Of a DNA stretch of 46,566 nt, positions 1-3,000 are shown piece by piece (within the stretch, counting starts at the first letter, position 1; each line of letters begins with the position of its first letter). The DNA comes from Escherichia coli (GTDB taxonomy: Bacteria > Pseudomonadota > Gammaproteobacteria > Enterobacterales > Enterobacteriaceae). The position numbers are program-made. The stretch lies in the NCBI RefSeq assembly GCF_003334355.1, contig NZ_QOWP01000029.1; one strand, written 5' to 3'.

Positions 1-3000
1 GGACAGAATGATGCATTCCGCTACCCGCAGGGCGTTAAGCTCGATCAGGAAAACAGCCGTATTTTTCTGCCGAAACTTGGCTGGATGCGCTACCGGAATA
101 GCCGTCAGGTTACGGGAGTTGTGAAAAATGTCACTGTCAGCCAGTCCTGCGGTAAGTGGTACATCAGTATTCAGACTGAAAATGAAGTATCAACTCCGGT
201 TCACCCTTCAGCATTAATGGTCGGACTGGATGCTGGCGTGGCTAAACTCGCCACGCTGTCAGATGGCACAGTCTTTGGGCCTGTAAACAGTTTTCAGAAA
301 AACCAGAAGACGCTGGCGAGACTTCAGCGACAGTTAAGCCGCAAGGTCAAATTCAGCAACAACTGGCAGAAGCAGAAACGCAAAATACAGCGACTGCATT
401 CCCGTATCGCAAATATCCGCAGGGACTACCTTCACAAAGTCACAACGACCGTCAGCAAAAACCACGCAATGATAGTCATTGAGGATTTGAAGGTCAGCAA
501 CATGTCAAAGTCAGCAGCGGGTACGGTCAGCCAGCCGGGGCGCAATGTCCGGGCAAAATCAGGTTTAAACCGTTCGATACTGGATCAGGGCTGGTATGAA
601 ATGCGCCGCCAGCTTGAGTACAAGCAGCTCTGGCGTGGCGGTCAGGTGCTTGCTGTTCCGCCAGCGTACACAAGCCAGCGTTGCGCGTGCTGTGGTCATA
701 CAGCGAAAGAAAATCGCCTGTCACAAAGTAAATTCAGATGCCAGGCATGTGGATATACAGCGAACGCTGATGTAAATGGCGCTCGTAACATTTTAGCGGC
801 GGGGCACGCCGTTCTTGCCTGTGGAGAGATGGTGCAGTCAGGCCGCCCGTTGAAGCAGGAACCCACCGAAATGATTCAGGCGACAGCCTGAACGTAGCAG
901 GGATCCACGTCCTTCAGGGCGTGGAGGATGTCAACACATCAGTATGGTTTCACCCCAGGCACTGGAAGCCAGACGTAAGGTCATCAAAGAGACAATCCTT
1001 AGCTGGCTTTTGGTTGACCCGTCATCTACCGCGCACGAATAAAACTGCCATCCGGCTGGCGGGTGAACAGGACCTGTTGATTATTCCCCGTATCAATGGT
1101 TAAGCCCGTCACCACGCCGCTGGCGTTCTGGCGGATTTTCACCATCTGCCCGTTTTGCAAATTACTCAGCGGCTTACCCGCGCCTTCTACCTGCGCCATT
1201 GCATAGACATCGGTAGCGGGCAGTCCGTGGTCGCGGAACAGCTGCGCCATCGTTTTACCGGGTTCGACACGGTAAGAGCGCCATTGATTATCAATTCCGC
1301 TATCTGGCTGGAATGGTTGCGTTTGGGAAGTTTGCGGCTGCTCTTCTGGCTGGCCTTCCTGTATAGGTTCTGGAGCGACCGGAGCCACCTGATCAGGATC
1401 ATTTTGTGGTGTGACTAATTGCGCCCGCAGCTGTTCTTCTGTCGGCGGTTGTGATTGCGACTGAATATCTAACTGCGCTTCACGCGTCACCACCGGCGCG
1501 TTGGGCGTATCATCAGATGGAAGCAGAAATCCGACCACCAATACAATGGCGGCAATAATGATCCCCCGACGATGCATCGGCGGCAGCGGGTCCATGAAGC
1601 GAAAATTGTCCGGCGCGTGCCAGACTTTCTCCAGGGTTGGTTTTAGTTCAAAGCGCCCGGGCATGGTTTCCTCCTGCTCCGCGTCTTGTTCCTCAATCAT
1701 AGCCTATGAATAAGCTAACGCTATGATGTCCGTGGTAAACCCGCCTTTATTATATTCATACGGGATATTGCTATTGTTTCTTTTTCCCCGGGATTTGTCA
1801 TCATTCCTGCGACAAAGTTTTACCCAAAGAAGTGTGGCTGATATGCTGCCCGCTACTTTTATACCCTAAGAAAGGAAATACGATGACCACCCCAACTTTT
1901 GACACCATCGAAGCGCAAGCAAGCTACGGCATTGGTTTGCAGGTAGGGCAACAACTGAGTGAATCTGGCCTGGAAGGGCTGCTGCCAGAAGCACTGGTTG
2001 CAGGTATTGCCGATGCGCTGGAAGGCAAACATCCGGCTGTTCCGGTTGATGTGGTGCATCGCGCACTGCGTGAAATCCACGAACGCGCCGATGCCGTTCG
2101 TCGTCAGCGTTTCCAGGCGATGGCTGCTGAAGGTGTGAAATATCTTGAAGAAAATGCCAAAAAAGAAGGTGTGAACAGCACCGAATCTGGCCTGCAATTC
2201 CGCGTGATCAACCAGGGTGAAGGCGCAATTCCGGCACGTACCGACCGCGTTCGTGTTCATTACACCGGTAAACTGATCGACGGCACCGTGTTTGACAGCT
2301 CCGTTGCTCGTGGTGAACCCGCTGAATTCCCGGTTAACGGCGTGATCCCTGGCTGGATTGAAGCACTGACTCTGATGCCGGTAGGTTCTAAATGGGAACT
2401 GACTATCCCGCAGGAACTGGCATATGGCGAGCGTGGCGCAGGCGCGTCCATCCCTCCGTTCAGCACCCTGGTGTTTGAAGTCGAACTGCTGGAAATCCTC
2501 TAAGCAGCGCATTCTGTTCCCCTCGAACCAGAGGGGAGCAGGCATGCAGCAATAAACCCTTCAGTTTGCCAAACGGCGCTATTTTGTGTTGCAAAGACCC
2601 CGTAAGCGTGTATTTTTGTGAGCTGTTTCGCGTTATCACCGTGATATGACACTCACTTTAAACATAAAATTAACATTAGATCTAAATCTTAGTATTCATC
2701 CCGCGTATTGTTACCTAATATCGATGAGTCCCGATACAGATTCGTCGTATCATAGACTGACTAAAGGCCGTAGAGCCTGAACAACACAGACAGGTACAGG
2801 AAGAAAAAAACATGGTAGATCAGGTAAAAGTCGTTGCCGATGATCAGGCTCCGGCTGAACAGTCGCTACGGCGCAATCTCACAAACCGACATATTCAGCT
2901 TATTGCCATTGGCGGTGCCATTGGTACGGGGTTGTTTATGGGGTCCGGCAAAACGATTAGCCTTGCCGGGCCGTCGATCATTTTCGTTTATATGATCATT

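Follow-up and report, generated by a model that had tools for sequence, protein, structure and literature searches.

The right end of an IS609 copy in ytfA of Escherichia coli and its predicted omega-RNA gene

The stretch of DNA considered here (the window) comprises 46,566 nucleotides of contig NZ_QOWP01000029.1 from Escherichia coli assembly GCF_003334355.1. Its left edge is occupied by a copy of IS609, an insertion sequence (IS) of the IS200/IS605 family whose tnpA and tnpB genes are divergent. Positions 1-934 are the right-hand 934 bp of this copy, an intact IS609 being about 1,748 bp long. With high confidence, the whole locus is best explained as an IS609 right end that carries an omega-RNA gene, with a guide taken from the flanking ytfA sequence, in a copy that is decaying. 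As part of this explanation, and with the same confidence, the last 100 or so nucleotides of tnpB and the 43-nt right end are predicted to encode the omega-RNA scaffold of the element. The identity and boundaries of the element, the motif that it targets, the conserved structure of the RNA, and the match of target-adjacent motif (TAM) plus guide in the empty allele are all directly observed. This is an ordinary, catalogued IS with the guide-RNA gene expected of it, an object of an already known kind from which no new principle emerges. RefSeq annotates tnpA and tnpB pseudogenes at the locus, but not the omega-RNA gene, the right-end boundary at 934 or the guide, which are supplied here.

Element identity, boundaries, and insertion site

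Over 1,717 nt, the element shares 96.9-98.1% identity with copies in which the annotation of tnpA reads 'IS200/IS605-like element IS609 family transposase'. The tnpA gene lies outside the window and is assigned to its family by the RefSeq annotation of related genomes. Within the window, a reading frame that is already open at the left edge continues for 296 codons, and the corresponding fragment matches the NCBIfam profile NF040570 'guided_TnpB' (RNA-guided endonuclease TnpB family protein) with 286.9 bits against a cut-off of 100, over profile positions 129-388 of 389. Together with the IS609 identity, this match bears out an earlier reading made from the sequence alone (the sequence-only reading), which had recognized the 3' end of an IS200/IS605-family tnpB at the left edge. 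That reading took the fragment for the C-terminal two thirds of TnpB; it is indeed the C-terminal part, but residues 107-402 of 402 represent about three quarters of the protein.

The first 4010 bases of the window are exactly those of strain E275a, with a substitution at position 4011 and a loss of register later on. On this sequence match, the source of the window is a sibling strain of E275a. In E275a, tnpA is located upstream of tnpB in divergent orientation, and the pair is flanked by two fragments of the TetR/AcrR-type pseudogene ytfA. Upstream extension in related genomes, which had been proposed as the way to look for a tnpA partner, thus reveals one.

The insertion point was defined by aligning both junctions to K-12, in which ytfA is uninterrupted and this IS609 insertion is absent, in agreement with the sequence-only reading, which placed no tnpB at this position in K-12. 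The K-12 empty site reads ...GGTTTAT/CACATCAGTATGG... (a slash marks the insertion point), so that TTAT is joined directly to CACATCAG, with zero duplicated bases. Five other E. coli insertion sites were also compared, namely ydcL/ydcO (in K-12), yedK, yeaR/yeaQ, a DUF3251 gene, and yidH. All of them harbor the left junction TTAT/CCGGTGCGCC... and the right junction ...GGAGGATGTCAA/unrelated flank, corresponding to the pattern TTAT/CCGGTG...GTCAA/flank. Because the junctions of these five sites and the K-12 empty site agree, the sequences place the insertion 3' of TTAT inside ytfA, without target duplication, and the end of the element at window position 934. The boundary is fixed independently by 69 loci from other genera, in which the 3' region ends in GGAGGATGTCAA or in a one-base variant of it and the following bases are unrelated. 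The left end was located at position 5198 of locus L001 by junction comparison. Near-identical subterminal hairpins are found at both ends, CCCCGTCCTTCAGGGCGGGG at the left (outside the window) and positions 904-925 at the right, and there are no terminal inverted repeats.

The gap between the tnpB and ytfB stops (892-1025, 134 bp) had been expected to contain the right end. It does, but only 892-934 (43 bp) belongs to the element; the remaining 91 bp (935-1025) are part of a ytfA remnant that extends to 1042. This apparently 'intergenic' segment is therefore part IS end and part pseudogene. The features that define it are as follows:

923-934, plus strand: right-end terminus GGAGGATGTCAA, nearly invariant in the five E. 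coli sites and the 69 non-E. coli loci; the element ends after TCAA (931-934)
935-1042, plus strand: 3' fragment of the ytfA (TetR/AcrR-type) pseudogene, from RefSeq annotation of identical sequence and alignment to K-12 ytfA; it overlaps the 3' end of ytfB by 17 nt
1026-1664, minus strand: ytfB (cell division protein), a convergent neighbor outside the element, from RefSeq annotation of identical sequence

The ytfA site is filled in about 31-33% of complete E. coli genomes and empty in about 60%. A 1,700-nt query spanning tnpB to ytfB (coverage of at least 80%) detected the filled site in 1702 of 5426 genomes, and a 301-nt K-12 query was contiguous, as expected of an empty site, in 3239 of the 5426; elsewhere, this second query splits at the insertion point. 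Queries of 50 nt across the junctions undercount, as megablast needs an exact word of 28 nt (800 filled and 1267 empty sites), and the longer queries were used instead. IS609-like DNA is present in 5016 of the 5426 genomes, at a median of 2 places per genome having any. The ytfA insertion is a common polymorphism, not one private to a strain, and the description 'strain-specific' given by the sequence-only reading was too narrow for an allele carried by about a third of complete genomes. Nor is the junction a chance arrangement, since the same junction recurs in all 1702 genomes with a filled site and the 3' region covaries in other genera. Filled alleles and empty alleles with a matching TAM and target coexist in E. 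coli, as do intact and broken copies of tnpB. This provides a natural test case, which bears on whether the native IS609 TnpB of E. coli is active, and whether it is active in trans.

The predicted omega RNA, its guide, and its target

Homologues suited to a covariation analysis came from a scan of one genome per species, a word-index protein search having returned near-identical E. coli proteins only. The scan yielded 80 loci encoding TnpB relatives of 58-94% identity, from Enterobacterales, Burkholderiales, and other Proteobacteria. RNAalifold, applied to an alignment of 42 sequences, gave six helices with a total of 28 base pairs. Across these 28 pairs and 42 homologues, standard pairs are found in 97.9% of cells, falling to 42-56% when the partners are slid by 1-3 columns. 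Compensatory double changes occur in 17 of the 28 pairs, and on every measure the observed values were reached by 0 of 500 shuffles. A covariance model, R1, was built exclusively from 12 non-enterobacterial relatives, whose TnpB proteins are 60-66% identical. It hits window positions 792-934 over its full length with 136.4 bits (E 5e-36), the sole significant hit in 46.5 kb. The covariance-model scan that the sequence-only reading had recommended for this region is thus positive, and the empty-site comparison that it also called for shows that the element, with its boundary at 934, does not end before the conserved structured RNA. The predicted RNA features are listed below:

792-934, plus strand: predicted omega-RNA scaffold, conserved structured core (covariance model, covariation, and homology to a published scaffold)
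796-812, plus strand: helix 1, 796-801 with 807-812, within the tnpB coding sequence; 6 pairs, 4 of them compensatory, with GC to CG swaps in 20 of 42 sequences
818-859, plus strand: helices 2 (818-822 with 855-859) and 3 (826-828 with 846-848), from the alignment; a sub-threshold RAGATH-18 match covers 818-861
866-901, plus strand: helices 4 (866-867 with 900-901) and 5 (871-873 with 893-895), from the alignment
904-925, plus strand: subterminal right-end hairpin of 9 bp, T904-C912 with G917-A925, UUCA loop at 913-916; 7 of the 9 pairs compensatory
935-954, plus strand: predicted guide segment CACATCAGTATGGTTTCACC, from the first base outside the right end onward, with an approximate 3' limit; presumed to be transcribed and used

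On the 5' side, the scaffold may reach to about position 728, judging from its homology with a published 207-nt IS609 scaffold. Helices 4 and 5 enclose a further hairpin (875-881 with 886-892), which contains the tnpB stop codon and is variable among relatives. The short hairpin that had been noticed at 904-925, just after this stop, is confirmed by its 9-bp stem, its UUCA loop, and the compensatory changes in 7 of its 9 pairs. In the preferred reading, it doubles as the hairpin recognized by TnpA on DNA and as the last stem of the omega RNA. A pseudoknot is possible between 788-792 (ACAUU, in the coding sequence) and 927-931 (GAUGU, in the invariant tail): these segments are paired in 95% of cases, compared with 13-65% when slid, and two sequences carry a G-C double change, but 27 of 500 shuffles did equally well.

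The arrangement anticipated by the sequence-only reading, a scaffold across the 3' end of tnpB and the right end with the guide just outside, is recovered as a conserved RNA at 792-934 followed by guide-length sequence from 935. In characterized TnpB systems, the guide measures 16-20 nt. In the K-12 empty site, TTAT is followed by exactly the bases of window positions 935-954, and the target, TTAT plus the guide match, is available in the 3239 of 5426 genomes with an empty site.

Transcription, 5' processing, 3' trimming, TnpB loading, and cleavage would all follow the established TnpB scheme. Transcription continuing past the right end at 934 would append the ytfA flank, from 935 to about 954, as a guide to the scaffold at 792-934 (perhaps starting from 728). 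The complex of TnpB and omega RNA would then cut DNA in which the TAM (TTAT) lies beside a match to the guide. Its target would be the empty ytfA site (also termed the donor joint), TTAT/CACATCAGTATGGTTT..., which occurs in about 60% of E. coli genomes, K-12 among them. Cleavage of the empty site would force recombinational re-copying, by which the element would be retained or spread, and the filled site would be immune because TCAA instead of TTAT precedes the guide match. The hairpin at 904-925 and the TCAA end would also act as the single-strand DNA recognition and cleavage signals for TnpA. For Geobacillus elements, TnpB and its omega RNA were shown to cut the scarless donor joint left after excision by TnpA, and the same TAM is read by TnpA and TnpB (Meers et al., bioRxiv 10.1101/2023.03.14.532601). 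Transcripts overlapping the 3' ends of tnpB genes have been described, with RNA-seq of E. coli K-12 included (Gomes-Filho et al., PMC4615843). No paper on the native IS609 TnpB of E. coli or on its omega RNA was found in the searched literature.

State of the copy and alternative explanations

The tnpB gene of this copy is broken upstream of the window. Compared with the O157 copy, which is intact and occupies the same site, tnpB of E275a lacks 11 bp (AGGCGCTTCGC, located between AGGCGC direct repeats) after codon 23. The deletion, at L001:5756-5757, i.e. 244 bp upstream of window position 1, has the flanking repeats typical of replication slippage. It leaves an open reading frame (ORF) of 36 codons, and the first ATG in the rest of the frame comes only at about codon 54. 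The deletion is shared by all four closest genomes, in which tnpB is annotated as 'frameshifted'. A 50-mer diagnostic of the window (93-142, with T111/A117/T137) has exact matches in 153 records, and the deletion junction is present in 156 genomes, with the same top record. From these matches, the deletion appears to mark a clade of about 156 complete genomes, and the cis tnpB of the window allele is almost certainly frameshifted. A complete uninterrupted TnpB ORF was thus not found for this allele. Of the degenerate ORF with disrupted catalytic residues that would have spoken against the sequence-only reading, only the degeneracy applies: the frame is shifted upstream by the 11-bp deletion, and the catalytic residues are intact. 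The RuvC-like motifs and zinc finger that it described are located as follows:

1-891, plus strand: 3' part of IS609 tnpB, codons 107-402 of 402 with a TGA stop at 889-891, from the ORF and its translation; the 5' part is outside the window
229-231, plus strand: RuvC-I aspartate, in GLDAG (D183 of the full-length protein), from motif position; aligned with 'GVDVG' of ISDra2 TnpB
481-483, plus strand: RuvC-II glutamate, in VIEDL (E267 of the full-length protein), from motif position and alignment with ISDra2 TnpB
769-771, plus strand: RuvC-III aspartate, in NADVNG (D363 of the full-length protein), from motif position and alignment with ISDra2 TnpB
682-750, plus strand: zinc-finger cysteines of the TNB domain, CxxC at 682-693 and CxxC at 739-750, from motif positions and Pfam TNB

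The three RuvC residues (D/E/D) and both CxxC pairs are all intact in the window fragment. In the O157 copy, which is 98% identical, the full-length protein of 402 amino acids harbors the Pfam domains HTH_OrfB_IS605, OrfB_IS605, and Cas12f1-like TNB. The tnpA gene of the clade is also altered. Its stop codon is lost through an A to G change on the plus strand at L001:5257, and the frame continues through the left end into ytfA. By comparison, the O157 copy at the same site has an intact tnpA of 143 amino acids, and the K-12 tnpA has an internal stop. Because tnpB is frameshifted and the tnpA stop is lost, the window copy is very probably non-autonomous and decaying, with its omega-RNA region intact; the terminal hairpin is fully paired in this copy, compared with a G-to-T change in the O157 copy.

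A serious alternative, somewhat less probable than an even chance, is that the copy is an inert relic, its omega-RNA gene being present by descent and unused in this strain, with no RNA produced or with the RNA degraded, and its intactness reflecting only the recency of the decay. This alternative concerns the activity of the locus, not its identity. It is favored by the 36-codon ORF left after codon 23, with the next in-frame ATG near codon 54, and by the lost tnpA stop. In addition, the scaffold differs by 0-3 changes from the other E. coli copies, which leaves no power to detect selection.

Several further observations weigh against the preferred reading. A simple scan for sigma-70-like promoters on the plus strand found none within positions 1-934, a weak negative that nevertheless fits an inert relic; the RNA would therefore depend on transcription of tnpB, which the upstream frameshift may lower through polarity. 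The frameshift site itself is outside the window, and it is assigned to the source strain from linked haplotypes. A terminator scan found no terminator-like site after the guide, the first one lying at 1232, beyond the stretch from 934 to the 3' end of ytfB. Helix 3 contains a mismatch, A827.C847, in the window copy and likewise in the O157, K-12, and yedK copies. Three other E. coli copies have C847T, by which an A-U pair is regained, but at the cost of a proline to serine substitution in TnpB. Finally, the closely related TnpB of IS608 from Helicobacter pylori failed to show activity in one interference assay (Meers et al., bioRxiv 10.1101/2023.03.14.532601), so that the activity of a given orthologue is not to be assumed.

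What speaks against an inert relic is the possible supply of TnpB from elsewhere in the genome. QML220614, a sibling genome with the same broken copy, carries at ydcO an intact insQ of 402 codons, whose protein accession is that of K-12 InsQ. The K-12-type copy differs from the window scaffold at three positions (746, 768, and 786), none of which falls within 792-934. With an intact InsQ and an identical cognate scaffold core in a sibling genome, use of the omega RNA in trans is physically possible. A more specific proposal, for which the odds are long, is that the omega-RNA gene of this dead copy may be expressed and its product loaded in trans by an intact InsQ/TnpB, such as that of the ydcO copy, leading to the destruction of incoming empty ytfA alleles (TTAT followed by CACATCAG...). 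If this were true, the 'address label' of a dead element would still be working, which would help to explain the persistence of the insertion in about a third of E. coli.

A very improbable alternative is that the hairpin and terminus act exclusively as DNA signals for TnpA, i.e. as a palindrome and a TCAA cleavage site, with no role in RNA. The same hairpin is indeed present at the left end, a single-strand DNA hairpin would covary equally, and in the relatives examined, the tetranucleotide 5' of the left-end hairpin mostly varies with the target (AAAA for TTAT, AAAG for TTAC, locus L009 being the one exception). However, four more helices located 40-140 nt upstream, in coding sequence, also covary and are not needed by TnpA. 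Three of the covarying helices (796-801/807-812, 818-822/855-859, and 826-828/846-848) lie within the tnpB coding sequence, 75-140 nt away from the end. The transposase is not known to need any structure there, which argues for an RNA role and not only for a DNA hairpin. Published TnpB work takes exactly this region as the guide-RNA scaffold (PMC12781874; bioRxiv 10.1101/2023.03.14.532601), and DNA and RNA roles are compatible with each other.

Even less probable is a co-option of the locus, either through read-through RNA acting as an antisense or other regulator of ytfB, or through TnpB acting as a guide-directed repressor similar to the TldR proteins. The 3' end of ytfB is only 92 nt past the right end, with no terminator-like site in between, and about a third of genomes retain the insertion. 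On the other hand, no copy examined has lost its nuclease residues, in contrast to TldR proteins, and the same element occurs at unrelated sites, with nothing specific to ytfB. Lastly, the 9-bp stem of the hairpin at 904-925 is G+C-rich and lies directly past the tnpB stop, but the interpretation of this hairpin as an intrinsic terminator of tnpB or of the convergent ytfB is rejected as the least credible of all, since the stem is followed by GGAGGATGTCAA rather than a T run, no A run precedes it to serve the minus strand, the terminator scan reports none at this position, and the post-stem sequence is invariant across genera, which is unexpected for a terminator tail.

Comparison with known systems and additional observations

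The preferred reading, an IS609 right end with an omega-RNA gene, can be compared with several known systems. The closest is IS609 of E. coli K-12, which encodes InsQ/YdcM next to ydcO. The two copies are 97% identical in nucleotide sequence along the entire element, and they share divergent tnpA and tnpB genes, hairpins at both ends, a TTAT target, and a TCAA end. They differ by their site (ydcO instead of ytfA) and by their lesions, as K-12 has an intact insQ and a tnpA with an internal stop, whereas the window allele has the 11-bp tnpB deletion and the lost tnpA stop.

Among natural proteins of solved structure, the closest to IS609 TnpB is the TnpB of ISDra2 from Deinococcus radiodurans (8H1J and 8BF8; also 8EXA). 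The two are homologous (E 1e-52 over residues 3-376), with alignment of the RuvC D/E/D residues and the zinc finger. ISDra2 also resembles IS609 in that its guide RNA is encoded across the 3' end of tnpB and the right end, with a guide drawn from the flank. The TAM of ISDra2 is TTGAT, compared with TTAT for IS609. The two TnpB proteins, on which the sequence comparison was made, are only distantly related.

A more direct comparison for the RNA is provided by the supplement of a study of SfaTnpB (PMC12781874), which contains an 'IS609 omega-RNA scaffold' of 207 nt that ends in GGAGGAUGUCAA and a guide designed behind a TTAT TAM. This scaffold is collinear with window positions 728-934 and has the same end. 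It belongs to a relative, labelled IS609 (94.279 in the table), whose TnpB sequence is different, and it shows several base differences, some of which are compensated in the terminal hairpin. An IS609-type TnpB and this scaffold were used in vitro, and the level of activity is absent from the main text (PMC12781874).

Three RNA families recall parts of the predicted scaffold. HgcC (RF00062) and sot0042 (RF02656) share with it the terminal UUCA hairpin and a GGAGGA.GUCA tail, and RAGATH-18 (RF03064) shares the CCUGUGGAG...GAAGCAGGAA stem, which corresponds to helix 2. All three are tied to the 3' ends of tnpB genes (PMC4615843; PMC11061315), but they are archaeal or IS607-associated, unlike the window element. 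A permissive Rfam scan of positions 1-3000 returned exclusively sub-threshold matches to these families, with no gathering-level hit in this range: HgcC at 828-947 (23.5 bits, gathering threshold 50), sot0042 at 764-925 (17.5 bits, threshold 88), and RAGATH-18 at 818-861 (25.4 bits, threshold 44.9). With scores so far under the gathering thresholds, membership in any of the three is rejected.

IS608 from H. pylori is the model of peel-and-paste transposition by TnpA; its right end terminates in TCAA, and it inserts 3' of a tetranucleotide, TTAC, without duplication. IS609 belongs to the same family and shares the TCAA end and the insertion after a tetranucleotide, but its target is TTAT instead of TTAC. 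In the left ends compared here (L009-L061 and the E. coli loci), the tetranucleotide just 5' of the left-end hairpin mostly follows the target. AAAA is found with TTAT in E. coli loci L001 and L003-L008 and in several relatives, and AAAG with TTAC in L018 and L020, the exception being L009, with AAAA and TTAC. This tracking agrees with the rule for IS608, in which the target is chosen through base pairing. The search for left ends by hairpin similarity recovered 9 of the 69 distant loci, so that the TAMs of distant relatives (TTAT and TTAC) are sampled only.

Two of the loci collected during the scan deserve mention for other reasons. In an Alcaligenaceae metagenome-assembled genome (CANCMG010000056.1; L073:2385-2800), a group II intron interrupts the right end of an IS609-like element between GGAGGATGT and the final CAA, a position that coincides exactly with the scaffold-guide junction of the omega RNA. 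The intron was recognized from Rfam matches to group-II-D1D4-3 (101 bits) and D1D4-1 (45.9 bits) and from its GTGCG 5' end. The second locus, NZ_BMTT01000064.1, is a 2,057-bp contig of a Streptomyces mutabilis assembly that carries an IS609-like tnpB, with 81% amino-acid identity to the E. coli protein; it probably represents enterobacterial contamination rather than a Streptomyces element. Elsewhere in the window, gathering-level Rfam matches at 9445-9567, 12919-12976 (minus strand), 13056-13098 (minus strand), 22082-22160, 28323-28400, and 38449-38564 correspond to ordinary annotated RNAs: the ES239 sRNA, STnc450, ES036, two naRNA4 (REP-derived), and the Mg2+ riboswitch of the mgtA leader.

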